Of a stretch of 64,000 nt of DNA, positions 41,320 to 60,177 are shown one piece after another. The DNA is from an uncultured Bacteroides sp. (GTDB lineage Bacteria > Bacteroidota > Bacteroidia > Bacteroidales > Muribaculaceae). Position 1 is the stretch's first letter; each line of letters starts with the position of its first letter. A program made the translations under genes and the position numbers. Location: NCBI GenBank assembly GCA_964582335.1, contig CAZORI010000004.1:23953-87952 (forward strand). The letters are read 5' to 3'. The notes under the pieces were generated by a model, which had not been told where the DNA came from, made no database searches, and was given only the letters and a program-made list of their open reading frames with translations.

Positions 41320-42285
41320 TTATCTGAAGAGGCGCCCAATGGCAATGCCCCAGTCGCGCAAAGTGAGGTCGATGGGCGTAATAAATGGCGTGATGGGCTT
41401 CTCGCTCTTGGGCCCGTAGATGCGTATGCTGTGTGGCAAGCAGTTTACCTCCACAGGGCTGCCTAAGTCGATAGGCTCGCCGTCGACATGCGCCCAGGCT
41501 TCGCCCTTGCACTCTACCGTCACATTCTTTGCGCGCAGCGTCTCGATGTGGCTGTTGTATGGCACCATGCCCGATATTAGGTCGAAACCGGCCAGCAGCA
41601 TCTGCATCACATTGCCGCTCTTCATAATCACCACGTCGAGCATGCCGTCGGTAATCGATGCCTCCGGCGCTATGAATGCGTTGTTGCCATATTGCGACGC
41701 ATTGCACACGGCCACAAGGAAAGCCTCCTCGTGATGAACCACGCCGTCGACCGTAATGCGGTAAGGCTGAGCCTTATAGTGGCTGAATTCCTCAACAACG
41801 TTCTTGATGTAGGTCATGCGTCCGCGCTTGCCGGCCTTTGCAAACTTGTGCGACACTATACCGTCGAACCCAAGGCCCATAGTGCAGAAAAACAAGCGAC
41901 CATTGGCCACGCCGCAGTCGCACGTGAGTATGTTGCGATTGGCGATGATGTCGACCGACAGCTCCTCGTCGATGGGTATGTCGAGATGGCGTGCCAAGCC
42001 ATTGCCGCTGCCCGAAGGCACTATGCCGAGCGCCACCCCGGTGCCGCACAGAGCCTTGGCTGTCTCATTGACAGTGCCGTCGCCTCCGCACACGGTGACG
42101 CTACCATAGCCCTGGCTGACAGCCTTGTGCGCCAAAGCAGTGGCATGGCCCTTGCCTCTGGTGTACTCGGTGTCGACGACAAATCCCTTCGACATAAGCA
42201 CCTCTCGAAGCTTCTCTGCCATGCCGACTTTGGAATTCACGCCGGCCTTGGGATTCACTATTAACAGCATCTTGTTTTCTTCCAT
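41320..42285 (-). CDS. YegS/DAGK-family lipid kinase
   Basis: 'IVNPKAG', 'GGDGTVNE', 'VPSGSGNGLAR' and 'HVDGE' motifs. Confidence 0.92.
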   Translation of the reverse strand: MEENKMLLIVNPKAGVNSKVGMAEKLREVLMSKGFVVDTEYTRGKGHATALAHKAVSQGYGSVTVCGGDGTVNETAKALCGTGVALGIVPSGSGNGLARHLDIPIDEELSVDIIANRNILTCDCGVANGRLFFCTMGLGFDGIVSHKFAKAGKRGRMTYIKNVVEEFSHYKAQPYRITVDGVVHHEEAFLVAVCNASQYGNNAFIAPEASITDGMLDVVIMKSGNVMQMLLAGFDLISGMVPYNSHIETLRAKNVTVECKGEAWAHVDGEPIDLGSPVEVNCLPHSIRIYGPKSEKPITPFITPIDLTLRDWGIAIGRLFR

Positions 42286-42289
42286 GCGG

Positions 42290-42297
42290 CAAAGTTA
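42290..42297 (-). promoter_or_regulatory. -7 box (TAACTTTG) 4 nt upstream of the lipid kinase ATG
   Basis: Minus strand reads TAACTTTG-CCGC-ATG. Confidence 0.65.
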
Positions 42298-42350: not shown

Positions 42351-42358
42351 TATCTTTG
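42351..42358 (+). promoter_or_regulatory. -7 box (TATCTTTG) for the inositol-lipid cluster
   Basis: Consensus match 25 nt before the ATG. Confidence 0.7.
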
Positions 42359-42383: not shown

Positions 42384-43253
42384 ATGGCGGATTACATAAT
42401 AGGCGGGGTAATGAGAGCCGTCGCCTATTCTCCAAATCATATAGGCAACGACACTGCAATCTTCAATCTCGTGGCTGACCAGCTGCGCAAACGCGGCATG
42501 CAGGTAACGGCCTACAACGAAGACCAATTGCAGGGCGGCAACGTTACCCAAAACATAATCATTAATATGTGCCGAGAGCCTCAATCACTGCGCCTGCTGC
42601 AAAAATACGAAGACGAGGGGCGCCTGGTGATCAACAGCGGCTACGGCATTGAAAACTGCACCCGCGAGCGCATGACCAGGATTCTCCTGGGCAACGGCAT
42701 TCCCTACCCACAAAGCATAATCGTCAACACTGACGAGCGCGTAATGGACCAGCTAAAGCGCCTTGGCATAGGCCCTTGCTGGGTGAAGAGCGGCGAACTG
42801 CACACCATGCACCGTGAAGACGTGAGCTATTCCAGGCACCCCGAAGAAGCCCAAGAAATAATCCAAGAGCTTTTCATGCGCGGATTTAAGCGCGCCGTTA
42901 TCAACAGGCACATCGAAGGCACGCTGCTGAAATTCTACGGCGTAGTGGGCACCCCGTTCTTCTTCTCCTTCTTTCCCATGTACTCAAACTCCGAGGTGGA
43001 GAAGGCTCAAATCATGTCGGATTTGGCGCAGCGAGGCTTCGACATGGAGGAATTCAAATCGACATGCCTCACTGCAGCCGAAGCCCTCGACGTAATCATC
43101 TATGGCGGCGACTGCATAGTGCAGCCTGATGGAAAATACTACATTATCGACTTCAACGACTGGCCAAGCTTCGCTCCTTGCAGGCAATTGGCAGCGCCGC
43201 ACATCGCTCGCGGGCTAATGAGCATCATCAAGCGCTACAAAGCCGAGAAGTAG
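42384..43253 (+). CDS. ATP-grasp-fold protein with an ITPK1-like C-terminal motif (putative inositol/inositol-phosphate kinase or ligase)
   Basis: 'LVINS', 'PCWVKSG', 'INRHIEG..LKFYGV' and 'IYGGDCIVQPDGKYYIIDFNDWPSF'. Confidence 0.6.
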   Translation: MADYIIGGVMRAVAYSPNHIGNDTAIFNLVADQLRKRGMQVTAYNEDQLQGGNVTQNIIINMCREPQSLRLLQKYEDEGRLVINSGYGIENCTRERMTRILLGNGIPYPQSIIVNTDERVMDQLKRLGIGPCWVKSGELHTMHREDVSYSRHPEEAQEIIQELFMRGFKRAVINRHIEGTLLKFYGVVGTPFFFSFFPMYSNSEVEKAQIMSDLAQRGFDMEEFKSTCLTAAEALDVIIYGGDCIVQPDGKYYIIDFNDWPSFAPCRQLAAPHIARGLMSIIKRYKAEK

Positions 43254-43283
43254 CCTCGCCCTAAATCAACTATTGAAATACCA

Positions 43284-43793
43284 ATGAAGCCTATACCCTC
43301 AAAATCAGATATAAAGAAATTCCCGTTTTGGCCCCGGATGCTTGCCACATCTTTCGGATTCGGATTTCTGCCCAAAGCACCGGGCACATGGGGCGCTATT
43401 TTCGCCATTATCCTGTGGCTGCCGCTATATATTTGGTGCCACCAGCCAGCCATATTCTGGATTACGCTCGCAGCCACTGTAGCCTACCTTTTCGCTGGCA
43501 CATGGGCCAGCACAATGGCAGAGAAATACTGGGGCAAGGATCCTGTGATAGCCTGCGCCGACGAGACTGTTGGCCAATGGATATCGCTGCTACCTCTAAG
43601 CGGAGTCGCTGTCACCCCTTGGTGGATGATACTCGTGTCGCTGGCGCTATTCCGATTCTTCGACATTTACAAGCCGCTTGGCATACGCAGCATGGAGAAA
43701 TTTCCGGGAGGATACGGCATGATGGCCGACGACGTGCTTGCCGGCGTATACAGTTGCATAATCCTATGCGTAATCAACATGTTACTCCCATGA
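43284..43793 (+). CDS. pgpA: Phosphatidylglycerophosphatase A family (PIP phosphatase-like)
   Basis: 'GFLPKAPGTWG', 'DETVGQW', 'FRFFDIYKP' and 'GMMADDVLAG'. Confidence 0.92.
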   Translation: MKPIPSKSDIKKFPFWPRMLATSFGFGFLPKAPGTWGAIFAIILWLPLYIWCHQPAIFWITLAATVAYLFAGTWASTMAEKYWGKDPVIACADETVGQWISLLPLSGVAVTPWWMILVSLALFRFFDIYKPLGIRSMEKFPGGYGMMADDVLAGVYSCIILCVINMLLP

Positions 43794-44314
43794 AATTATC
43801 GCTAAAGAAAATCGGCACCGACATACTCAAAAAGGACAATCTGATATACACCTTTTTGCGGTCTGCCGTATCCTCGCAAGCCGCCTCGTGGGTCGACATG
43901 GGTCTTGGATTCGTGCTGTTTTCATGGGCGCATCTCACCCCCTGGCTGTCTACTGCACTTGGCGCTATTGCCGGTGGCGCAATCAATTGCATCGTCAACT
44001 ACAAGTTTACGTTCCATGCCAAGAATTGCCCATGGTCGGCCGTTATCGTAAAGTACGCGCTTGTGTGGGTGGGAAGCCTGCTGCTCAACGCTTTCGGAAC
44101 ACAGTTTCTCTACTACGTGCTCAACTCATGGGATTGGCTCAAGACACTCGGCTTCACCGATGAAGGCTGCTACGCGGCAGCCCGACTCACCACCAGCCTG
44201 GCTGTGTCGTGGTTCTGGAACTTCATCCTGCAGCGCTACTTTGTGTATCATCCCACAAAATTCGACAAGTACGCCACGGCACTGGTGCATCTTTTTGTCC
44301 CATCCAAAGACTAA
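43790..44314 (+). CDS. GtrA-family small membrane protein (flippase-like)
   Basis: ATGA overlap with pgpA; four TMs, 'NCIVNYKFTF' and 'WNFILQRYFVY'. Confidence 0.8.
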   Translation: MKLSLKKIGTDILKKDNLIYTFLRSAVSSQAASWVDMGLGFVLFSWAHLTPWLSTALGAIAGGAINCIVNYKFTFHAKNCPWSAVIVKYALVWVGSLLLNAFGTQFLYYVLNSWDWLKTLGFTDEGCYAAARLTTSLAVSWFWNFILQRYFVYHPTKFDKYATALVHLFVPSKD

Positions 44315-44360
44315 TATTCATCGAACCAAATATAAGAAAAACCTTATCAGGAAACACCTT

Positions 44361-45059
44361 ATGGCAATAAAAAAACAAGCTACCGTTGCCCGCAACAATC
44401 TGCAACAAGGCATATACAAGGTAATCAATCCTTTCGTGAAATTGTTGATCAACATGGGAATCACCCCAAATGTGGTCACCACCATCGGATTCCTCGGCAA
44501 CCTTGCCGCAGCATGCGTGATCGCTTGGGCCGGCTACAAGGCTTCGCAGCAAGGCTCAGTGGAATGGGGCCTGCTCACCCTGGGCGGCGCGCTAATTATC
44601 GGATTCTCGCTTTTCGACATGCTCGACGGCCAAGTGGCTCGCTTGGGCAACATGTCATCAACGTTTGGCGCCATGTACGACTCCGTGCTCGACCGCTATT
44701 GCGAGCTGATCACCCTGGGCGGCATCGCCTACTATTTTTGCTGCATCGACCAGATGCTGGGCACGCTCTTAGCGTTTTTGGCGCTTATGGGCAGCCTGAT
44801 GGTGAGCTACGTGCGCGCTCGAGGCGAAGGCCTTGGCGTGGTGTGCAAGATTGGCTTCATGCAGCGTCCCGAGCGCGTGGTGGTAACCAGCTTAGCCACT
44901 CTCGCCACTGGCATAGTGGGGCAGACGGGCGCCAACTGCGACCCTAACATCGTGTTGATGACAGCAATGGCATTCATCGCGCTATTTGCCAACATCACCG
45001 CCTTTGCCCGCATAGGCTGGTGCAAGCGTGCACTTCAAGTCAAAGACAGCGAGCTATGA
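44361..45059 (+). CDS. CDP-alcohol phosphatidyltransferase (phosphatidylinositol-phosphate synthase-like)
   Basis: 'ITPNVVT' and the CDP-AP signature 'DMLDGQVAR....S.FGAMYDSVLDR', plus 'RPER'. Confidence 0.9.
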   Translation: MAIKKQATVARNNLQQGIYKVINPFVKLLINMGITPNVVTTIGFLGNLAAACVIAWAGYKASQQGSVEWGLLTLGGALIIGFSLFDMLDGQVARLGNMSSTFGAMYDSVLDRYCELITLGGIAYYFCCIDQMLGTLLAFLALMGSLMVSYVRARGEGLGVVCKIGFMQRPERVVVTSLATLATGIVGQTGANCDPNIVLMTAMAFIALFANITAFARIGWCKRALQVKDSEL

Positions 45060-46021
45060 CGCACGGCATCACGTCACAGTCGCGCTGGCCATCTGCGCGC
45101 CAAGCCGTGGCTTGCATCGCGGCTCTCGCAGTGTGGCTTATAGTCACCGCGCTCTTCATTGGCTTCAGGCCTGAGCACATATTCATGGCTATCGCAATTG
45201 CGGCGCTTTTCTTTGCCACAAGCAGCACCCGACGCCTCATCGTCGCTCTCATTCCTTTTGCGCTCTTCGGCATCTCCTACGACTGGATGAACCTCTGCCC
45301 CAACTACATGGTGAACCCCATCGACGTGGCCGGGCTCTACAACACCGAGAAGTCACTCTTTGGCATAAAGGTGTCGGAGGCTCTCACCCTCACCCCAAAT
45401 GAATTTTTCGCCATGCACACCTCACGCCTCATGGATTTCATGGCGGGCGTGTTCTATCTATGCTGGGTGCCAGTGCCTATTCTGTTTGGGCTATGGATGT
45501 ATTTCCGTGGCTACGCGAGCAATTACGCGCACTTCGCCCTGGTGTTTCTGTTTGCTAACCTCATTGGCTTCACTTTCTACTACGTGCATCCGGCAGCTCC
45601 GCCATGGTACGTGGCTTTGCACGGAATGGAGCCTATCGTGGGCACCCCCGGCAATGTAGCCGGGCTGGCAGTTTTCGACAAAATGACGGGGCTTGGCATC
45701 TTCGACGCCCTCTACGGACGCAACAGCAACGTATTCGCAGCAATGCCCTCGCTGCACAGCGCCTACACGCTTGTGGCTTGCATCTACGCAATGCGCCTGC
45801 CCCGCATAGCCAGCAGCCGTGCGGCATGGATCATAGCGCTGGCAGTCATCACCCTGGGCATATGGTTCACGGCGGTGTATACATCCCATCACTACATCCT
45901 CGATGTGATGGGCGGCATTGCTTGCGCCCTGTTGGGCACAGCCTTATTCGAGGCAGTGCTAATGCGCATCCCCGCTTTCGCCCGCTTTGTCAACAACTAC
46001 GCCAATTATCTCAAAAAATAA
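45056..46021 (+). CDS. Inositol phosphorylceramide synthase-like (Aur1/PAP2_3) protein
   Basis: 'HPAAPPWY', 'FAAMPSLH' and 'YTSHHYILDV' AUR1 motifs; ATGA overlap with the upstream gene. Confidence 0.88.
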   Translation: MTHGITSQSRWPSARQAVACIAALAVWLIVTALFIGFRPEHIFMAIAIAALFFATSSTRRLIVALIPFALFGISYDWMNLCPNYMVNPIDVAGLYNTEKSLFGIKVSEALTLTPNEFFAMHTSRLMDFMAGVFYLCWVPVPILFGLWMYFRGYASNYAHFALVFLFANLIGFTFYYVHPAAPPWYVALHGMEPIVGTPGNVAGLAVFDKMTGLGIFDALYGRNSNVFAAMPSLHSAYTLVACIYAMRLPRIASSRAAWIIALAVITLGIWFTAVYTSHHYILDVMGGIACALLGTALFEAVLMRIPAFARFVNNYANYLKK

Positions 46022-46063
46022 CACAGGCGGGAGATTCTGCCTGCCGCCAACACTATTCACGAT

Positions 46064-46909
46064 ATGGACAACAACACTGATGAAGTACGCCCTGATGTGC
46101 TCAATTATGACGATATAAAGCAAATGGTGCCATGGCTCGACGGCAAAGAAAAGCTTGTCAATTCGCTGCTGCATTGGCTCGAAGTGGACAAGGTGAACAA
46201 TATACACGCCGCTTACTGCGACACGCCCGGGCCGATGTATGTAAAGCGAATGGTCGAGGACGGCTTCAAACTTAAGCTTCGCATCGACAACGAGCAGGTG
46301 CTCGACCATCTGCCTGAGGGCGCATTCATCACTGTGAGCAATCATCCATTCGGAGCCATGGACGGCATTGTGCTGATATACCTGATATCGCAGCGCCGAC
46401 CAAAATTCAAGGTTATGGTGAATATGATTCTCAACAAGATTTCGGCTATGCGTCCTAATTTCATCGCCGTCAACGCCTGGGCAAGCAACGATCCGGAGAA
46501 AAAACGCGTGTCGCAAGCCGGCGTCCGCCAATGCCTGGAACAGCTGCACGACGGCGAGCCTCTCGGCTTTTTCCCCGCCGGAGCCATGAGCAAAGTCGAC
46601 TGGCACCTGCACCTGCAGGACCGTCCTTGGCAAGATTCGGTGCTTAGAATAATATTTCGCGCCAAAGTGCCGGTGATACCAATTTTCTTCCACGGGTCCA
46701 ACAGCTGGTGGTTCAATTTCCTGGGCGTTGTGTGCTGGCAAGCACGCTCATTCCGCCTGCCCGCCGAGGTGTTCCGCAAGACCGGCAAGGAAGTGCACGT
46801 GAGCATCGGCAACCCCATCAGCGTCGAGACGCAGAGCCAATTCAAAAGCCCTGAAGAATTAGGCAAATACCTGCGCGAACAGACATACGCCCTTCGCGAC
46901 ATAAAATAA
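46064..46909 (+). CDS. PlsC-like (lyso)lipid acyltransferase
   Basis: 'VSNHPFGAMDG' (HxxxxD), 'FFPAG' and 'VPVIPIFFHG'. Confidence 0.85.
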   Translation: MDNNTDEVRPDVLNYDDIKQMVPWLDGKEKLVNSLLHWLEVDKVNNIHAAYCDTPGPMYVKRMVEDGFKLKLRIDNEQVLDHLPEGAFITVSNHPFGAMDGIVLIYLISQRRPKFKVMVNMILNKISAMRPNFIAVNAWASNDPEKKRVSQAGVRQCLEQLHDGEPLGFFPAGAMSKVDWHLHLQDRPWQDSVLRIIFRAKVPVIPIFFHGSNSWWFNFLGVVCWQARSFRLPAEVFRKTGKEVHVSIGNPISVETQSQFKSPEELGKYLREQTYALRDIK

Positions 46910-46929
46910 GACATACTCTTTTGCTAATC

Positions 46930-47655
46930 ATGCACTTGCCATCAATAAAGGGCATAATATTCGATTACGGAGGCACGCTCGACACCCATGGCACGCATTG
47001 GTCGCATATTCTGCGCCAAGGATGGCAGCAAGCCGGCTTGAGCGTGCCCGACGAAGTATTCCGCCAAGCCTACGTGCAAGGCGAGCGCGCAATGGCTGAA
47101 ATAGGGGCTATAAGCCATTCCGACGATTTCCATGCCGTGCTTCTCAAGAAATCAAAGGCGGCCCTTGGCTCGATGAGCAATCCAAGCCAGTACTACATAC
47201 GCCCGGAGGAATTCAGAGCAGATGACGCGGCTGCAAGCATAGCACACTACTGCGATGCTTTCGCAGCCAAGCATACAGCCGAGTCGGCACGCTTGCTGAA
47301 GCATCTGGGCGAGAAATACGAACTGTGCCTGGTGTCGAACTTCTATGGCAACCTCCCTGCCGTGCTTGAAGGCTACGGGCTAAGCCGACTTTTCCCACAC
47401 GTGATAGAAAGTGCCGCTGTGGGTGTGCGCAAGCCCGACCCGCGCATTTTCACAATAGGGGCGCTTGCGATGGGGCTGCACCCAAACGAGGTGCTTGTGG
47501 TGGGCGACAGCCTGAAAAACGACATCCTTCCGGCTCAGTCAGCAGGCTTTCCCACGCTTTGGCTTAAGGGCAAAGGCTGGGACAGCAGCGACGATGACGT
47601 CAGCCAACAACGTTGCATCAGCTCGCTGTCACGCCTTGCCGATGCGCTACCCTGA
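46930..47655 (+). CDS. HAD-family hydrolase
   Basis: 'FDYGGTLD', 'VSNFYG', 'RKPDPRIF' and 'VGDSLKNDI'. Confidence 0.9.
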   Translation: MHLPSIKGIIFDYGGTLDTHGTHWSHILRQGWQQAGLSVPDEVFRQAYVQGERAMAEIGAISHSDDFHAVLLKKSKAALGSMSNPSQYYIRPEEFRADDAAASIAHYCDAFAAKHTAESARLLKHLGEKYELCLVSNFYGNLPAVLEGYGLSRLFPHVIESAAVGVRKPDPRIFTIGALAMGLHPNEVLVVGDSLKNDILPAQSAGFPTLWLKGKGWDSSDDDVSQQRCISSLSRLADALP

Positions 47656-47707
47656 AGCAATCGATATATTTCGACAAACATATTTTTGTGTTGTGACCTT
47701 TTTTTAG

Positions 47708-47715
47708 TAACTTTG
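47708..47715 (+). promoter_or_regulatory. -7 box (TAACTTTG) for DUF3127-gpmI-comF
   Basis: Consensus match. Confidence 0.7.
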
Positions 47716-52327: not shown

Positions 52328-52360
52328 TCAACATATGTTGAGAATTTTTATTTTTTTAAC
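52328..52360 (+). promoter_or_regulatory. Perfect 14-bp palindrome (TCAACATATGTTGA) plus -7 box (TACCTTTG) ahead of the GLPGLI island
   Basis: Palindrome at 52328-52341; -7 box at 52353-52360. Confidence 0.55.
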
Positions 52361-52391
52361 TGTACCTTTGTACAACAAAAACATTTACTGG

Positions 52392-53255
52392 GTGATTCGA
52401 CAATCAATCATAATCACAATAATAGCCCTCTTTGCCATATTTGATGTATCGGCAAAGAAGATAAAGGAGTATCCTCGCGCCGAGATAAAGGTTGGCTACA
52501 ACTATCATGAGACTTTCGTGCGTGGCTCTGACGGTATAATAAAGCGTGACATTCCATTTGTCCTATTGGCCAACAAAGAACAGGCTAAGTTCTATAACAC
52601 AAAAACGGAGTATAAGGATTCTCTTGAATCCACGCCACAGGGCAGAGCCGTAAGTCATCAGCTCTTTAACGAAGCGGTTAAACGTTATTCGGAAACGAAG
52701 GACGAAAGTGCAATGAAAAATGTGGTATATCAAACATTTCTATACATATTCCGCTCCGCACTTGACAATCAGATGACCGTCTATGACAAGGCTGGATTTA
52801 TTGAACAAGGTTTCTACACCGAGCCTCTTGGAGAGATTCAATGGGAGATTTCCGATTCGACAAAAACTGTGTTGGGTTATGACTGTGTGATGGCAACGGC
52901 CAATTATCATGGCCGTGATTGGACTGCATGGTTCGCGCCTGATATTCCTTTGCAGGAAGGTCCGTGGAAACTGACCGGGCTTCCGGGGCTAATATTGGAG
53001 GCAAGTGAATCTACAGGGCAACATTCTTTCGTTGCTACCGGATTGGAGGCTTCAAATCAGGAGATTGTTCCTGTTTATCCTTATCGTCAATACAATAAAA
53101 TGACCCGTATTGAAATGCTGAGACAGCTGCGCAAATACCAAGACCATCAAAACGCCATTGACGGAGCGGTCACAGGGGTTCAATTCGGTACAGACCATAT
53201 CCGCACAGCCGAAGAGGCAAAAATAGATTTTCTTGAAACGGATTATCACGAATGA
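52392..53255 (+). CDS. GLPGLI-family protein 1
   Basis: 'GPWKLTGLPGLILEA' and 'YHGRDWTAWFAPDIP'. Likely GTG start at 52392, since the ATG at 52335 precedes the -7 box. Confidence 0.88.
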   Translation: MIRQSIIITIIALFAIFDVSAKKIKEYPRAEIKVGYNYHETFVRGSDGIIKRDIPFVLLANKEQAKFYNTKTEYKDSLESTPQGRAVSHQLFNEAVKRYSETKDESAMKNVVYQTFLYIFRSALDNQMTVYDKAGFIEQGFYTEPLGEIQWEISDSTKTVLGYDCVMATANYHGRDWTAWFAPDIPLQEGPWKLTGLPGLILEASESTGQHSFVATGLEASNQEIVPVYPYRQYNKMTRIEMLRQLRKYQDHQNAIDGAVTGVQFGTDHIRTAEEAKIDFLETDYHE

Positions 53256-55864
53256 ACCGACTGATATTCACATTGGCATTTGCGTGGGCTGCGCTGATTG
53301 GTGTGGCACAAGTGCAAGTGTCCGGTGTGGTCGTTGAGGAAGGCTCGAACGAGCCGTTGACCGGGGCGTCGGTGATACTGCGCAATGCCGAGGGGAAGAT
53401 AAAGAAGTACGCAACGTCGGATGCCAACGGTAAATTCAATATCTCAACTCCTGAAATCAAAGGCTACACCCTCGATGTGTCGATGATGAGTTTTGCAAAA
53501 CAGACTGTCAAACTCGACAGTGTTCAGTTGCCGGTGACTATCGTCATGACGGCTTCTGCCACTATGCTCAAAGAAGTTGCAGTAAAAGCCGACCGCATAC
53601 GCGAGCAGGGTGACACAATAACCTACAATGTCGGAAGTTTCGCTCAGGCACAGGACCGAAGCATCGGTGATGTACTTAAACGTATGCCGGGAATCGATGT
53701 GGCGAATAACGGCAAAATTCAGTATCAAGGCGAAGACATCAACAAATTCTACATAGAGGGTTCCGACCTGTTGGGTGGTAAATACGGCATAGCCACCAAT
53801 GGTATCAATCATGATGATGTGGGTGCAGTCGAGGTTATGGAGAATCATCAGCCCATGCAGGTACTGTCGGGTATCAGTTTCTCCGACAAGGCAGCTATCA
53901 ACCTCAAACTGAAGAACAAGGCGAAAGCCACATGGACTTTCCACGGCGATGTCGGAGGCGGTTACTCGTGGCAACCCGAAGGCGCGATATGGGACGGAGA
54001 ACTCTTCGCAATGGCAGTCATGCCCGGATTCCAGAACATCACCACATTCAAGACCAACAACATCGGTGAGGATTTGTCAGCCAACGCCACCGATTTCTTT
54101 GCCTCCGGCCGCAACACGGAATTGAGTCGATATATAGGTGTGTCGCTTCCGGGCGTGCCGAATCTGAGCCGCAAGCGGACACTTTTCAACCGTTCGGCAT
54201 TGGTATCGACAAACTCCCTTTGGGAAGTGAAAAACGGAGAGTTTAAGGCACAGATTGACTACTCCTTCAACCACGTTACGGCTCAGGCAGCAAACATAAC
54301 CACATATTTCCTCGAAAGCGGCGACCGTGTGATTACCGAGAACCGTGACGGACGTGACCGTTCACATTCCCTTTCCGGCAAGTTCATCTATGAGGCCAAT
54401 CAAAAGACAACATTCATCAACAACACTCTCTCAACAAACATTGACTGGGATGATGTAAGACTTGGCATGACCGGCTCGTTGCCAAACGACCAGTCTGCAA
54501 AACTGCCCGACTACTATGTCGCCAACAAGTTCAAGATGATCAAGCGGTTCAATGGCAAACACCTCGTTACATTCCAGAGCAACAACGAATGGGAGTCGCT
54601 GCCGCAAACGCTCAATGTATCATTTGATGGTAGCAATATCCGCCAGCATATCGGCGACCTCGCTTTCTACACCCATGAGAGTGCAGCCTACGCTTTCTCA
54701 ATCAAGGGCGTTACAGTAAGCCTTGAAGGTGGAGTGAAAGGATATTTGCGTAGCATGAACTCAGAGAACTCAGAGAACTCAGAGAACTCAGAGCTCTCAG
54801 AGGACTCAGAGTTCTCAGAGGACTCAGAGTTCTCAGAAAATCTTATCAGCACAAACTATTTCACAGTCTATGCCACCCCGAAATTTGAATATTGGGTGAA
54901 GCGAGTGAATTTCACGCTTGATGCCCCGGTCAGCTTCGCGCATTACACATTTGACAAGGCACTTGCCAACCGCTCGGAGGTTTACTTCTCCCCCTCGCTC
55001 AGCATGAACTGGAAACCCAACAACCGCTTCTCCATGACTCTGCGAAGCGGCACCGGTCGCTCACCAATGAGCCTCAACATGATTCAGCCCGGCTACATCA
55101 TGACCAACTACCGCACTTTCAAGCAGGGAGTTGATGATTTCTACAACTCTACATCCCAAAGAGTCTCGGCCAATTTCTCCTACAAGCATACACGACGTGG
55201 AGTGTTTGCCAATGCGATGGTAATGCAGTCATGGTCACATCTACCTTACACAATGGCTCAGCAGCTATACGGCGACTATATCGTGTATTCCTACACCGAT
55301 GCCAAAAGTGACGGACAAAATCTGATGGCTATGGGTAGTGTTGGCAAGACACTCGACTTCATGCGTGGCTCTGCCAATATCAATGGCTCGTTCAACCGTG
55401 GCGAGTCGCATCTTTTCTCGGAAAACAATGCTGTCAACTCGGTAAGCCTTGGCTGGAGTGTTGGGGCGAAAATCAACGGTTCTCCGCTACGGTGGCTCAG
55501 TTTCGACTACTCGATTGACTTTTCCAACAGCCAACTACGTATGAACGGTATCAAGAACTCATGGCTCAGCGGTATGGAGAACTCCCTGCTCATCAACATT
55601 ATGCCTCACAGTAAATGGGAATGGCGCATTATGGGCGAGCATTACCGTAATGAACTCACCGAAAGAACATATAAAAATGTGTTCTTGCTCGACACCAAAC
55701 TGAACTATAAACTCAACAAGCGCATCGAACTCTCCGCGATGCTCAACAACATATTCAATCAACGAACATATAATTACACAACCTACAGCCAGCTCTCATC
55801 CTTCGAGTCACAACGATGGCTCCGCGGACGCGAACTCCTGCTCACAATCTCCCTACGAAAATGA
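53252..55864 (+). CDS. Outer-membrane beta-barrel / TonB-dependent-receptor-like protein with N-terminal CarboxypepD_reg-like domain
   Basis: Signal peptide, 'EPLTGASV', plug-like 'IGDVLKRMPGIDV', beta-strand-rich C-terminus; ATGA-coupled to the flanking GLPGLI genes. Confidence 0.8.
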   Translation: MNRLIFTLAFAWAALIGVAQVQVSGVVVEEGSNEPLTGASVILRNAEGKIKKYATSDANGKFNISTPEIKGYTLDVSMMSFAKQTVKLDSVQLPVTIVMTASATMLKEVAVKADRIREQGDTITYNVGSFAQAQDRSIGDVLKRMPGIDVANNGKIQYQGEDINKFYIEGSDLLGGKYGIATNGINHDDVGAVEVMENHQPMQVLSGISFSDKAAINLKLKNKAKATWTFHGDVGGGYSWQPEGAIWDGELFAMAVMPGFQNITTFKTNNIGEDLSANATDFFASGRNTELSRYIGVSLPGVPNLSRKRTLFNRSALVSTNSLWEVKNGEFKAQIDYSFNHVTAQAANITTYFLESGDRVITENRDGRDRSHSLSGKFIYEANQKTTFINNTLSTNIDWDDVRLGMTGSLPNDQSAKLPDYYVANKFKMIKRFNGKHLVTFQSNNEWESLPQTLNVSFDGSNIRQHIGDLAFYTHESAAYAFSIKGVTVSLEGGVKGYLRSMNSENSENSENSELSEDSEFSEDSEFSENLISTNYFTVYATPKFEYWVKRVNFTLDAPVSFAHYTFDKALANRSEVYFSPSLSMNWKPNNRFSMTLRSGTGRSPMSLNMIQPGYIMTNYRTFKQGVDDFYNSTSQRVSANFSYKHTRRGVFANAMVMQSWSHLPYTMAQQLYGDYIVYSYTDAKSDGQNLMAMGSVGKTLDFMRGSANINGSFNRGESHLFSENNAVNSVSLGWSVGAKINGSPLRWLSFDYSIDFSNSQLRMNGIKNSWLSGMENSLLINIMPHSKWEWRIMGEHYRNELTERTYKNVFLLDTKLNYKLNKRIELSAMLNNIFNQRTYNYTTYSQLSSFESQRWLRGRELLLTISLRK
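54758..54838 (+). repeat. In-frame 9-bp tandem repeat (NNCTCAGAG x9) encoding (x-S-E)n
   Basis: AACTCAGAG x4, CTCTCAGAG, GACTCAGAG, TTCTCAGAG, GACTCAGAG, TTCTCAGAA. Confidence 0.95.
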
Positions 55865-56700
55865 AAAAGTTACTCACCCTCACAGTGATGTGCATGGTGG
55901 CGATAGTCGCCGTCGCACAAGAAAATTTAGCGGTAAAATATACCGTATCTAATCGAGATACAGATAGTGGTAAACCCTACTCATACGAAATGGCGTTGGT
56001 CGCTAATCCGCAAAAGTCTTTGTATTACAATACAGAGAGTCTCTTTTGTGACTCCTGTAACTCTACCCCGGAGGGTAAAGCTAAATTGCATGAGATTCAG
56101 ATGAAGGCTTGGACAGTAGTTCATCCGGATGGCTCAGTTACATTAGATGGACGAAAACTCGGATTGGCACCTGAAAAAAAACAGTTTCTTTATGTTGCCA
56201 AGGATAATGCCGATGGGGAATTGACCGTGTATGATTACAAAGGAGGAGGCTTAGCCAGTTATACTGAACCTGTCTCGGATATTGAATGGTCAATTATCGG
56301 AGACTCAACCAAGACAATATTAGGTTATGAATGTGTGATGGCCAAATCTGACTATCATGGGCGCATTTGGACAGTGTGGTTCACTCCTGAGATTCCCGTT
56401 CAGGATGGACCATGGAAACTGCGTGGACTTCCAGGCGTGATACTCAGTGCCAATGGTGGGGATGATTTCCATATTGATGCCATTGAAATTGGAAGTACTT
56501 CACAGATGATTCCGGATATGTATCTTGTCAGTGACTACGAAAAAGGAGAGCGTAAAAAGATTCTTGCCGACCATGAACACTATATCAATAATCTCGAAAG
56601 TATAATGGCGGCTCAAGGTGTCAAGATAAATGGTGACGGTTCTCCTGCCAATCTGCCTAAATATGACCGTCAACGAAGCGCATGGGAAACCGACTATTGA
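55861..56700 (+). CDS. GLPGLI-family protein 2
   Basis: Signal peptide MKKLLTLTVMCMVAIVAVA and 'GPWKLRGLPGVIL'. ATG at 55861 overlaps the upstream stop. Confidence 0.9.
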   Translation: MKKLLTLTVMCMVAIVAVAQENLAVKYTVSNRDTDSGKPYSYEMALVANPQKSLYYNTESLFCDSCNSTPEGKAKLHEIQMKAWTVVHPDGSVTLDGRKLGLAPEKKQFLYVAKDNADGELTVYDYKGGGLASYTEPVSDIEWSIIGDSTKTILGYECVMAKSDYHGRIWTVWFTPEIPVQDGPWKLRGLPGVILSANGGDDFHIDAIEIGSTSQMIPDMYLVSDYEKGERKKILADHEHYINNLESIMAAQGVKINGDGSPANLPKYDRQRSAWETDY

Positions 56701-56768
56701 TAAGATTATAAGGAAGATACTAACAACTTTATATTGATAAGATTATGAAGAAGATACTAACAACTTTA
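56695..56768 (+). repeat. 37-bp imperfect tandem duplication across the stop/start junction of GLPGLI 2 and 3
   Basis: TATTGATAAGATTATAAGGAAGATACTAACAACTTTA followed immediately by TATTGATAAGATTATGAAGAAGATACTAACAACTTTA (2 mismatches). Confidence 0.95.
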
Positions 56769-57605
56769 GTGATGTGCCTCGTGGCGATGACTGCAATGGC
56801 ACAGGAGAAAGCCGACATTTTGGTCAGCTACGCATATACCAAGCCCACCCCTCGTGGCAAGATTGACACTGAAAAAATGTCATTGTTGGCCAATACTACA
56901 AAGGCTAAGTATTTCAATGATTTAAGTCTTTGGGTTGACTCTCTAAAATCCACTCCGGAGGGCAACGCTCAATATCGAGAAATCATCAAGAAGGCTTGTA
57001 TGACAGTTGAGCCTGATGGTTCTGTAAGCTTTGATTTGAGGAAAGGGCCATCAAAGAAGGTCCATACATACGTTTTCACCAATCTTGCTGACGGAGAAGT
57101 GACTTTATTCGATAAGTTTGGGGAGGACAATGGATTCTATACCGAGCCATTCAATGAGATGGATTGGACAATTGCGGAAGATTCTACTACAACTGTTCTT
57201 GGATACGACTGCATACTGGCGGAGAGTGACTATCACGGTCGGCATTGGAAAGCATGGTTTGCTCCGGAAATCCCCATTCCTTTCGGTCCATGGAAGCTCC
57301 GTGGACTCCCCGGCCTTATTCTTAAGGCAACGGCTGATGGTGATTTTTCTTTCACCGCCACCGGACTTGAACGAACCGATAGAATAATCTCGCCTATGTA
57401 CCTCAAGGAGGACTATACAAAGGTTGACAGACTGAAAGCTCTTGACAATGCTGAATATTATGCCAACAATGCCGAAAGCATTACGAACGCCCAAGGGCAA
57501 AGGGTAAAAATCTATCAGCTCGACGATGACGGCAACAGGGTAGAAGTTCCCAAATATGACGGATTAAAACACAACCTTGAGCCGGATTATAAGATTATAA
57601 AATGA
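56745..57605 (+). CDS. GLPGLI-family protein 3
   Basis: Signal peptide MKKILTTLVMCLVAMTAMA and 'GPWKLRGLPGLILKA'. Confidence 0.9.
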   Translation: MKKILTTLVMCLVAMTAMAQEKADILVSYAYTKPTPRGKIDTEKMSLLANTTKAKYFNDLSLWVDSLKSTPEGNAQYREIIKKACMTVEPDGSVSFDLRKGPSKKVHTYVFTNLADGEVTLFDKFGEDNGFYTEPFNEMDWTIAEDSTTTVLGYDCILAESDYHGRHWKAWFAPEIPIPFGPWKLRGLPGLILKATADGDFSFTATGLERTDRIISPMYLKEDYTKVDRLKALDNAEYYANNAESITNAQGQRVKIYQLDDDGNRVEVPKYDGLKHNLEPDYKIIK

Positions 57606-57772: not shown

Positions 57773-57866
57773 TATGCCGACTCACTAAGGCTGCAACTCC
57801 GCAGCATTAACCAACTCGCTGAACTCTCAAAAAATGACACAAAGTCAAGATACAATCATAAATCTA

Positions 57867-58624
57867 ATGGTTATTGGCATAATCATACAGGCGCGCACCG
57901 GGTCGAGCAGGCTGCCCGGCAAGATGGTGATGCCCTTTTATGGCGACAAGTCGATATTGCAAATCCTCATCGAGCGCATCAAGGCCGCTGTGCCAGGCGT
58001 GCCCGTCATTGTGGCCACATCCACACAGCCGGGCGACGACCGCATAGAAGACATATGCCGCCTCTCCGGCGTGGAATGCTATCGCGGCGACGAAAACGAC
58101 GTGCTTAGCCGATTCACCGGAGCCGCCGACAAATACGCACTCTCGCATGTGATACGCATCTGCGCCGACAACACATTTCTTGACATGCGCGCACTGAATA
58201 AGCTCGCGCAGGCATTGCCCAAATCCCAGGCCGACTATCTGTCATACCGCACTCACTCAGGCCTCCCAACCATACTCACGCACCACGGACTGTGGGCAAT
58301 CGAAGGCGCGAAAGCAGAAGCATTGCAATGGGTGGCAAGCAATGTAGCCGACCCCAAATACCACGAGCACGTCACCAACTATCTCTACACCCACCCCGAC
58401 CAATTCACGGCAGAATACATCAACATCGACTCGTCCTTGCAAGACAAAGACAATTTGCGACTTACCATCGACACTCGCGACGATTTCGACATGATGAAAG
58501 AAATATATGCCTACCTCACTGACAATCATCTCGAAATAACGCCCGACAACATCGTGAGATACATCGACACGAAGCCAGAATTCTACGCGGCCATGCAGCG
58601 CATAATCAACCAAAACAAGAAGCA

Positions 58625-58628
<4 letters not shown>
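57867..58628 (+). CDS. SpsF-like cytidylyltransferase (CMP-KDN/CMP-nonulosonate synthetase)
   Basis: 'IIIQARTGSSRLPGK', 'RGDENDVLSRF', 'EHVTNY' and 'LTIDTRDD'. Start may be 57834 or 57867. Confidence 0.85.

Positions 58629-60177
<1,549 letters not shown>

Follow-up and report, generated by a model that had tools for sequence, protein, structure and literature searches.

A seven-gene inositol-lipid locus

The window analysed here, a 64,000-nucleotide stretch of contig C4 from an uncultured Muribaculaceae genome (G000), contains a run of seven + strand genes at 42384-47655. The genes and the motif that precedes them are as follows.

42351-42358, + strand: promoter-like Bacteroidetes -7 motif TAnnTTTG (TATCTTTG), 26 bp before the first ATG
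42384-43253, + strand: ATP-grasp enzyme of an unnamed family, 289 aa (weak NCBIfam matches, ATP-grasp fold)
43284-43793, + strand: PgpA-family phosphatase, a BT_1525-type phosphatidylinositol-phosphate (PIP) phosphatase (PF04608, 129.8 bits)
43790-44314, + strand: GtrA-like membrane protein, in the BT_1524 position (PF04138, 38 bits)
44361-45059, + strand: PIP synthase, BT_1523 type (NF052561, the top match at 262 bits though below its cut-off of 350 bits; NF045883 PIPSynth, 118 bits; PF01066)
45056-46021, + strand: phosphoinositol dihydroceramide (PI-DHC) synthase, BT_1522 type, PAP2_3 (NF052609, 479.6 bits, cut-off 480; PF14378)
46064-46909, + strand: acyltransferase resembling the lyso-lipid O-acyltransferases GlsA and OlsF (N-terminal part) (PF19576, 79 bits; NF053697 GlsA, 123 bits; NF052615 OlsF, 126 bits)
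46930-47655, + strand: HAD-IA hydrolase, belonging as its phosphatase to the CDP-inositol cassette described below (PF00702, PF13419, PF13242), with an alternative TTG start at 46921

Two ATGA overlaps link pgpA to the GtrA-like gene (43790-43793) and the PIP synthase gene to the PI-DHC synthase gene (45056-45059), and the remaining intergenic gaps measure 11-46 bp – confirming the coupled gene run described in an earlier reading of the DNA from its letters (the sequence-only reading). TAnnTTTG, which we take to be the -7 element established for Bacteroides promoters, occurs 45 times in the window (24.7 expected). The + strand copies at 43428 and 44733 lie within coding sequence. Consistent with the seven genes forming one operon, the motif is found 5' of the first gene, and its next noncoding + strand copies (47681-47688 and 47708-47715) both lie 3' of the last.

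The PgpA, GtrA-like, PIP synthase and PI-DHC synthase genes have the same order as in the Bacteroides thetaiotaomicron cluster BT_1522-BT_1526 (Heaver et al. 2022), with pgpA in the matching position. In contrast to that cluster, the gene for myo-inositol-phosphate synthase (MIPS) is not adjacent, and a gene of another pathway borders the module on each side. As the sequence-only reading had noted, the window contains no MIPS. However, the genome's sole MIPS match lies on another contig (C22:6101-7366, 351 bits), and the proposal that the ATP-grasp gene stands in for MIPS is thus not borne out.

The ATP-grasp gene as part of a CDP-inositol cassette

Comparison of genomic neighbourhoods identified the ATP-grasp family as a constant core of the ‘alternative’ (B. 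vulgatus/Prevotella-type) CDP-inositol cassette for inositol lipids. This cassette encodes an NTP transferase, the ATP-grasp protein, a CDP-alcohol phosphotransferase, an HpnL/LPG_synthase_TM-like membrane protein, a HAD phosphatase, and MIPS. The order NTP transferase, ATP-grasp, CDP-alcohol phosphotransferase, (LPG_synthase_TM-like protein), HAD, MIPS is repeated across the fetched Bacteroidales neighbourhoods and in most of 80 Muribaculaceae loci, and in nearly all loci a HAD homologue (32-47% identity) lies 3' of the CDP-alcohol transferase gene of the cassette. The NTP transferase and CDP-alcohol transferase both match NF041135 weakly. Outside Bacteroidota, the five-gene core is also present, with an added Gfo/Idh/MocA dehydrogenase and a class-III aminotransferase.

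A putative ‘alternative inositol lipid cluster’ has been described in Bacteroides (Phocaeicola) vulgatus and Prevotella (Heaver et al. 2022, Nat Microbiol, PMC9246714; preprint 10.1101/2021.04.26.441525). It contains the same NTP transferase (BVU_RS13095), CDP-alcohol phosphatidyltransferase (BVU_RS13105), and HAD (BVU_RS13115) adjoining MIPS, and a lysyl-PG-synthase-TM-like gene lies close by. Both the ATP-grasp and the HAD gene in the window are members of this cassette. The published text gives the HAD a PI-DHC synthase role and leaves the ATP-grasp gene unmentioned (‘grasp’ has 0 occurrences), though the gene order suggests that it corresponds to BVU_RS13100, a locus tag that the text skips. 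The ATP-grasp proteins are thus an overlooked family within a described cassette.

The sequence-only reading called for an anticorrelation between the ATP-grasp gene and MIPS, but we observed the opposite. MIPS is present in 53 of 56 ATP-grasp genomes overall, usually ≤6 kb away. The proportions are 35 of 37 in a Bacteroidales sample (28 within ~5 kb) and 22 of 23 in a sample of the phylum Bacteroidota, against a background MIPS frequency of 15-18%. Nine genomes of the Bacteroidales sample have MIPS without the ATP-grasp; eight of these carry the B. thetaiotaomicron-type PI-DHC synthase, and in the other (G160) the MIPS gene is cut by the contig end. No ATP-grasp homologue was found in sampled genomes that encode PI-DHC synthase and MIPS but lack the alternative cassette.

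In Muribaculaceae, the B. thetaiotaomicron-type module is located between the cassette's ATP-grasp and CDP-alcohol transferase genes, resulting in composite clusters of nine or ten genes. This nested arrangement occurs in 15 loci, including that of Duncaniella muris DSM 103720 (L099). The enclosed module consists of PgpA, GtrA, PIP synthase, and PI-DHC synthase, plus an acyltransferase in about two thirds of loci; the acyltransferase follows PI-DHC synthase in 9 of the 15 composite loci and also in L128 and L129. The window contains a reduced version in which, unlike in the published cassette, the cassette is split and encloses the module, with the ATP-grasp and HAD genes as its two ends. The missing cassette parts are encoded elsewhere in the genome: the NTP transferase on C64 (50% identity) and a second CDP-alcohol transferase (49%) on C22, as is MIPS. 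The sequence-only reading correctly placed the ATP-grasp gene in the MIPS position next to pgpA, but this adjacency exists because one module is nested within the other cassette. The ATP-grasp gene is neither a MIPS substitute nor part of the B. thetaiotaomicron-type route.

Sequence and fold of the ATP-grasp family

The ATP-grasp protein has no Pfam match, and no Pfam or NCBIfam model covers its family. Its N-terminal part weakly matches the NCBIfam models MptN, RimK, and LysX (E 1e-7 to 5e-5; 24.9 bits for TIGR00768, cut-off 143), and family members have equally weak Pfam matches to RimK, Ins134_P3_kin, and ATPgrasp_ST. Named members among the ~4800 homologues are mostly annotated as ‘hypothetical protein’.

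In a broader alignment, R11, D23, N84, W133, K135, G179, Y185, G241, D243, N258, and P261 are invariant and R94, D146, H176, K183, D256, D259, and W260 are ≥90% conserved; the catalytic set (K135, K183, D243, D256, and N258) is intact. The C-terminal motif highlighted by the sequence-only reading corresponds to residues 238-263, and its observation of D-x-N in place of the E-x-N of RimK-type ligases holds family-wide, with D256-x-N258 conserved throughout and E-V-N in the aligned RimK sequences. ITPK1 (inositol 1,3,4-trisphosphate 5/6-kinase, PF05770; PDB 1z2n, 2q7d) shares the ATP-grasp fold and the D...D-x-N metal motif, after which come an aromatic residue and Pro, though members of the family analysed here are shorter (~285 aa) and score under every family threshold.

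The by-eye resemblance to ITPK1 found some support at the profile level but not at the structural level. The family profile matched ITPK1 chains (E 7e-5 to 7e-4), most strongly in the C-terminal region; PsnB (7e-8) and RimK (6e-7, over nearly the full length) scored slightly better. The AF2 model (pLDDT 94.8) has an ATP-grasp fold for which the top Foldseek matches are D-Ala-D-Ala ligases (Ddl), ArgX/LysX, PsnB, and RimK (E 1e-15 to 1e-12, TM 0.6-0.7), with ITPK1 absent from the top 50. These ligases, which are of similar size, are thus the best matches by both structure and profile. The sequence-only reading had named in advance two observations that would count against it – MIPS elsewhere in the genome and co-occurring, and ligases as best structural matches – and we made both. 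Its interpretation as a whole is partly supported and largely fails its own tests.

Predicted role in head-group activation

Gene fusions link the ATP-grasp to its cassette partners. Fusions of the soluble NTP transferase to the ATP-grasp (~515 aa) are the commonest kind, occurring, for example, in Prevotella histicola, Dysgonomonadaceae, and a Tannerella sp. MAG. Triple fusions that add the CDP-alcohol phosphotransferase (P0436 and P0212) and ATP-grasp–HAD fusions (P0359 and P0373) were also identified. These fusions place the ATP-grasp in head-group activation. The gene belongs to inositol-lipid synthesis, and its cassette is a putative second inositol-lipid pathway of gut Bacteroidales. Kinase–cytidylyltransferase pairs are known from Kennedy-type routes: LicA and LicC act on choline, and in the LicCA fusion type of Treponema denticola the cytidylyltransferase is N-terminally fused to the kinase that makes its phospho-alcohol, upstream of head-group transfer to lipid. 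LicA-type kinases have a protein-kinase-like fold.

We consider the ATP-grasp most likely to be a kinase for inositol or an inositol phosphate, with a probability of about 0.5. The predicted reaction is ATP-dependent phosphorylation of a hydroxyl on inositol monophosphate or on free myo-inositol. The adjacent or fused nucleotidyltransferase would convert the phosphomonoester product to a CDP-activated head group, the CDP-alcohol transferase would move this onto dihydroceramide or diacylglycerol, and the HAD would strip the leftover phosphate. Two sub-routes can be envisaged. In the first, Ins3P would proceed through InsP2, CDP-inositol-phosphate, and a phosphorylated lipid to the final lipid after HAD action – paralleling the logic of PIP synthase/PIP phosphatase and DIPP synthase. 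In the second, the HAD would first release inositol and the ATP-grasp would re-phosphorylate it where the phosphodiester is to form, a scheme that would also admit external inositol. The kinase role put forward by the sequence-only reading thus survives as the most coherent account of fusions and neighbours, though with a product that would be destined for the nucleotidyltransferase and not for PIP synthase.

Several lines of evidence are consistent with a kinase. The catalytic set is intact, D-x-N replaces E-x-N, and the family profile reaches ITPK1 (E 7e-5), which accepts Ins3P, the MIPS product (Laha 2021, PMC8024741). The HAD is of the small-molecule HAD-IA type, and no conserved neighbour would provide a ligase with a carboxylate or an amine. 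Three MIPS-less genomes (G109, G217, and G665) keep the cassette. Genomes with only the B. thetaiotaomicron-type route lack the ATP-grasp, and B. thetaiotaomicron itself barely uses external inositol (PMC9246714). Against a kinase, the closest solved structures are ligases, few basic residues are conserved beyond those expected for ATP binding, and many MIPS-positive Bacteroidota genomes lack the gene. Nor does a CDP-inositol pathway logically require a kinase. The Rhodothermus marinus IPCT/BEPIS system (Jorge, Borges and Santos 2015, as cited in PMC4587543) and archaeal IPCT/DIPPS likewise combine MIPS, a cytidylyltransferase, and a CDP-inositol-using CDP-alcohol transferase, and the Rhodothermus operon as described in PMC4587543 contains neither ATP-grasp nor HAD.

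The structural and profile matches, together with the weak NCBIfam matches, could instead indicate a carboxylate ligase akin to RimK/LysX/Ddl or PsnB, which would form an acyl phosphate and join a carboxylate (from an amino acid or a protein side chain) to an amine or hydroxyl – for example, to modify the inositol head group or a carrier. PsnB makes esters to hydroxyls, so an ester on an inositol hydroxyl is chemically conceivable. We nevertheless regard a ligase as unlikely: scores fall far under the family cut-offs, the metal motif differs, ligase-type partner genes are missing, and active-site residues are identical between clusters with and without the aminotransferase. Moreover, the fused nucleotidyltransferase needs a phosphomonoester, and species with only the alternative cassette are reported to make plain PI-DHC (Heaver 2022, PMC9246714).

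It is more doubtful still that the ATP-grasp acts after lipid assembly, phosphorylating the finished lipid's inositol to yield a PIP-like sphingolipid with the HAD as opposing phosphatase. The triple fusion anchors it to the CDP-alcohol transferase, which is membrane-bound, and in the HAD fusions a presumed kinase is paired with a phosphatase, as in PPIP5K (PMC8024741); however, the most frequent fusion partner acts before lipid assembly, the HAD type suits small molecules, and phosphorylated PI-DHC as a final lipid of these bacteria was not found in the cited literature.

Most improbable is the idea that inositol enters the B. thetaiotaomicron-type pathway by salvage alone, with the ATP-grasp replacing MIPS and phosphorylating imported myo-inositol for PIP synthase: the position beside pgpA (that of BT_1526), the three MIPS-less genomes, and Tannerella forsythia, which makes inositol ceramides solely from external inositol and has no known kinase for it (PMC4587543), speak for it, but co-occurrence with MIPS, the nested arrangement behind the pgpA adjacency, the absence of the gene from genomes with only the B. 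thetaiotaomicron-type route, and constant partners that are the NTP transferase and second CDP-alcohol transferase rather than PIP synthase speak against it.

For the kinase reading, retention of the ATP-grasp in the three MIPS-less genomes leaves room for a role in inositol salvage. One of them, G665, encodes a PfkB-family protein at the usual MIPS position. Among solved structures this protein is most closely related to the myo-inositol kinase TM0415, which makes the ATP-grasp a less likely free-inositol kinase in that genome. This PfkB linkage to the cassette is confined to one lineage.

An operon for inositol lipids and the location of MIPS

The inositol-lipid operon consists of seven tightly packed genes on the + strand that span 42384-47655, and the coordinates and overlaps first read from the sequence were all reproduced. 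There are two ATGA overlaps: pgpA and gtrA share one at 43790-43793, and the genes for PIP synthase and phosphoinositol dihydroceramide (PI-DHC) synthase share the other at 45056-45059. The remaining intergenic gaps measure 11-46 bp. The operon's first ATG is preceded, 26 bp upstream, by a Bacteroidetes -7 motif, and the next noncoding + strand copies of this motif appear only past the HAD gene.

Genes of the operon, in order
42384-43253 (+): ATP-grasp protein, 289 aa; no Pfam match; in NCBIfam the N-terminal region weakly matches MptN, RimK and LysX
second gene (+): PgpA (PF04608, 130 bits)
third gene, after pgpA (+): GtrA-like membrane protein
fourth gene (+): PIP synthase, BT_1523 type (NF052561, 262 bits)
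fifth gene (+): PI-DHC synthase (NF052609, 479.6 bits against a cut-off of 480)
46064-46909 (+): acyltransferase resembling GlsA and OlsF
last gene (+): HAD-IA hydrolase

The PIP synthase, PgpA-type PIP phosphatase and PI-DHC synthase of the Bacteroides thetaiotaomicron-type cluster are thus all present in the window, with no MIPS adjacent to them there. The sequence-only reading had taken this as a possible sign of inositol salvage, with the ATP-grasp standing in for MIPS. However, the assembly that carries the window on contig C4 (2.2 Mb, 96.7% complete) encodes a 446 aa MIPS on another contig (C22:6101-7366; PF07994, 351 bits; PF01658, 104 bits), so the argument from absence falls.

An anticorrelation between the ATP-grasp and MIPS had also been proposed, and we observed the reverse. 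Among 301 Bacteroidales genomes, 37 encode the ATP-grasp and 44 encode MIPS; both are present in 35 of the 37 ATP-grasp genomes, and in 28 of these 35 the two genes lie on one contig at most about 5 kb apart – counts that include related and therefore non-independent genomes. Nine Bacteroidales genomes have MIPS and no ATP-grasp: eight carry a B. thetaiotaomicron-type PI-DHC synthase, and the remaining one has its MIPS gene interrupted by a contig end. The ATP-grasp family profile had no match in five genomes with only a B. thetaiotaomicron-type cluster. Across 401 Bacteroidota genomes, 23 gave a strong ATP-grasp match, and 22 of these also encode MIPS, mostly less than 6 kb away. This strong co-occurrence, together with the MIPS in the same genome, does not support replacement of MIPS by the ATP-grasp.

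A CDP-inositol cassette and a module nested within it

Neighbourhoods of the ATP-grasp gene in 18 genomes mostly contain an NTP transferase, the ATP-grasp, an ~305 aa CDP-alcohol transferase, an LPG_synthase_TM/HpnL-like membrane protein, a HAD hydrolase and MIPS. This conserved neighbourhood is what Heaver et al. named the 'putative alternative inositol lipid cluster'; they list an NTP transferase (BVU_RS13095), a transferase (BVU_RS13105) and a HAD (BVU_RS13115) and nowhere mention the ATP-grasp. From gene order alone, we infer that the skipped locus tag, BVU_RS13100, is the ATP-grasp. A literature search found no description of this protein. The ATP-grasp is a core enzyme of the CDP-inositol cassette that had been overlooked, and production of an inositol lipid through CDP-inositol by this cassette is putative in Bacteroidales. 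The published model of this route, likewise putative, omits one constant gene, and the role it proposes for the HAD is unlikely. With a function for the ATP-grasp the pathway would be complete, and bacterial inositol metabolism would gain a new enzyme family.

All of the best 80 related loci, among them that of Duncaniella muris DSM 103720, are of Muribaculaceae type, and most carry the plain cassette. Fifteen of the 80 have the order (NTPt)-ATPgrasp-[PgpA-GtrA-PIPS-PIDHCS(-AcylT)]-CDP-OH PT-HAD(-MIPS), in which a B. thetaiotaomicron-type module is nested inside the cassette (NTPt, NTP transferase; PIPS, PIP synthase; PIDHCS, PI-DHC synthase; AcylT, acyltransferase; CDP-OH PT, CDP-alcohol transferase). 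The window carries this nested arrangement minus the NTP transferase, the second CDP-alcohol transferase and MIPS, and all three are encoded elsewhere in the genome, so that cassette genes contiguous in relatives are here dispersed.

Cassette components in the genome of the window, besides the ATP-grasp and MIPS
C64:6351-7034 (1474-2190 of locus L041): NTP transferase homologue, 50% identity
C22:13198-14073: second CDP-alcohol transferase homologue, 49% identity; MIPS lies about 6 kb away
window, last gene of the operon: HAD

The adjacency of the ATP-grasp gene to pgpA, in what had been called the MIPS position, is therefore real, but it is explained by nesting rather than by substitution. The operon unites genes of both inositol-lipid routes, and the practical result for the window is a corrected annotation in which the genome has both routes, including MIPS. 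The genome's cassette NTP transferase gene directly follows pdxA, and at another locus (L130) the whole cassette occupies the pdxA position, which may be where the cassette first resided.

Three genomes (G109, G217 and G665) have the cassette without MIPS. In G665, the usual place of MIPS after the cassette HAD is occupied by a PfkB-family gene (locus L135, on G665:C23, 4114-5049 (-); also loci L138 and L139), and the closest solved relative of its product is TM0415 (E 4.5e-26), the PPi-dependent myo-inositol kinase of Thermotoga. Because of this position and relationship, the sequence suggests that inositol enters through PfkB in G665 and that the ATP-grasp would act later. PfkB as a general substitute for MIPS is a hint only, since its linkage to the cassette is limited to G665 and two near-identical metagenome contigs and no close homologue was found in G217 or G109; homologues at about 60% identity are located elsewhere, away from the cassette.

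Fold, family and probable activity of the ATP-grasp protein

The AF2 model of the window protein (pLDDT 94.8, pTM 0.90) has the three-domain ATP-grasp fold, with 620 PDB matches at E<=0.001, of which the top 50 are all ATP-grasp enzymes at probability 1.00. Consistent with this fold, the ATP-binding lysines and three metal ligands (K135, K183, D243, D256 and N258) are invariant or more than 90% conserved in two alignments of 105-117 sequences. An invariant R11 just after strand 1 could be the counterpart of the ITPK1 N-terminal lysine.

A likeness of the C-terminus to ITPK1 had been proposed from residues 238-263. Within this segment, D256-F-N258 is conserved and gives the D-x-N motif of ITPK1, a correspondence that agrees with the region aligned in the PDB profile match. 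That part of the proposal stands, whereas membership in ITPK1 is unsupported by Pfam, the PDB profile search and Foldseek. The window protein does not match PF05770 (Ins134_P3_kin) even at E<=1, and only weak matches were found in 15 of 117 family members (best E 0.0041). Searched against the PDB, the family profile scored PsnB at 7e-8, RimK at 6e-7 and ITPK1 at 7e-5, the last in sixth place with only its C-terminal part as the best-scoring stretch. Foldseek was led by Ddl, ArgX, PsnB and RimK (TM 0.6-0.7), and ITPK1 was not among its top 50 matches. Matches to RimK/LysX-type models were also below threshold: TIGR00768 (24.9 against a threshold of 143.4 bits), LysX (22.6 against 275.6) and MptN (31 against 350) all fell short, Pfam RimK had no match to the window protein, and D-x-N stands where aligned RimK has E-V-N, the E-x-N motif of RimK/LysX-type ligases. 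Single family members match RimK, Ins134_P3_kin and ATPgrasp_ST equally weakly. These results place the ATP-grasp in a separate family, in neither ITPK1 nor RimK.

Genomic context argues for a kinase. A nucleotidyltransferase requires a phosphomonoester substrate, and the cassette NTP transferase and the ATP-grasp are often one polypeptide. The cassette HAD, from its sequence, looks like a small-molecule phosphatase. For these reasons, and because no conserved gene for a ligase partner was seen near the ATP-grasp, we consider a kinase for inositol or an inositol phosphate the most likely function of the protein, at even odds (probability about 0.5). ITPK1, likewise an ATP-grasp enzyme, accepts Ins3P (PMC8024741). 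Counting against a kinase are the many MIPS-positive Bacteroidota genomes that lack the ATP-grasp and the Rhodothermus CDP-inositol route, which on the account in PMC4587543 includes no such enzyme. The main rival is that the protein is a ligase, as the structural ranking, led by Ddl, ArgX, PsnB and RimK, would suggest; with no conserved partner gene nearby, a ligase seems to us clearly less likely than a kinase.

The kinase reading can be extended, tentatively and with some doubt, to a bacterial inositol-monophosphate kinase. The ATP-grasp would convert Ins3P, the MIPS product, to an inositol bisphosphate, the cassette would proceed via CDP-inositol-phosphate to a phosphorylated lipid intermediate, and the HAD would trim that intermediate. 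ITPK1 is eukaryotic and archaeal, and the ATP-grasp family would be its distant bacterial cousin. Gut Bacteroidota contain inositol sphingolipids in abundance, and these lipids reach the host. If true, this scheme would be an undescribed route of head-group activation, common to the inositol sphingolipids of gut Bacteroidales and to the clusters for aminated-inositol lipids in other phyla. The review PMC8024741 mentions no bacterial ITPK. The ATP-grasp would also be a candidate for the inositol-activating step of Tannerella forsythia and mycobacteria, which lacks an identified enzyme (PMC4587543). Among the named protein hits, the genus Tannerella was represented by one 'Tannerella sp.' MAG.

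Fusions, wider distribution and neighbouring genes

NTP transferase::ATP-grasp proteins of ~515 aa are numerous, occurring in Prevotella histicola, Dysgonomonadaceae, a Tannerella sp. MAG and Alloprevotella. Triple fusions (NTPt::ATP-grasp::CDP-OH PT) and ATP-grasp::HAD fusions were also found; a 519 aa 'HAD fusion' ORF in locus L039 is probably an over-long ORF call. Outside Bacteroidia, a Gfo/Idh/MocA dehydrogenase and a class-III aminotransferase join the cassette core, some loci have MlaEFD or hopanoid genes beside them, and one genome with a cluster of this type has MIPS elsewhere. The conserved residues are kept in all fused, non-Bacteroidia and tandem-paralogue ATP-grasps.

Tandem paralogues, both with the full residue set, occur at loci L134 (G671:C9, 5965-7634) and L136 (G400:C51, 5669-7361) within a larger cluster of MlaE/MlaF/MlaD, class-III aminotransferase, Gfo/Idh/MocA dehydrogenase, HAD and MIPS genes. 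Two non-Bacteroidota loci (L132, 175-13580; L124, 5537-13404) combine HAD, NTP transferase, ATP-grasp, aminotransferase, dehydrogenase, CDP-alcohol transferase and HpnL-like genes; the former lies beside hopanoid genes (squalene-hopene cyclase and an HpnH-like radical SAM enzyme) and the latter is followed by a YdjC-family gene. One family protein (P0246, 691 aa) is a PAS/HisKA/HATPase_c sensor histidine kinase fused to an ATP-grasp, and in locus L126 (2-1324) a kinase gene of this type lies directly upstream of, and overlaps, an ATP-grasp::HAD gene.

The operon's acyltransferase (46064-46909) resembles GlsA, the lyso-glycine-lipid O-acyltransferase. Of the 15 nested clusters, 9 have it together with the PI-DHC synthase, and in some other genomes it adjoins MIPS. 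By analogy with the three-chain lipids reported in T. forsythia (PMC4587543), it might be a candidate for esterifying the 3-hydroxy fatty acid of inositol ceramide.

A YegS/BmrU-type lipid kinase gene (41320-42285 (-); DAGK_cat and YegS_C; TIGR00147, 135 bits) is divergent from the operon and has its own TAnnTTTG motif (42290-42297); it is absent beside the cluster in all 80 related loci and is therefore probably unrelated to it. Downstream of the operon, 52335-57605 (+) has a lower G+C content (0.44-0.48 against about 0.54) and encodes three paralogous Porph_ging/PNGase_F-II_N-like proteins and an 870 aa CarboxypepD_reg-domain protein. This stretch is followed at 57834-59668 by genes for a CMP-sugar cytidylyltransferase and a NeuB-family synthase.
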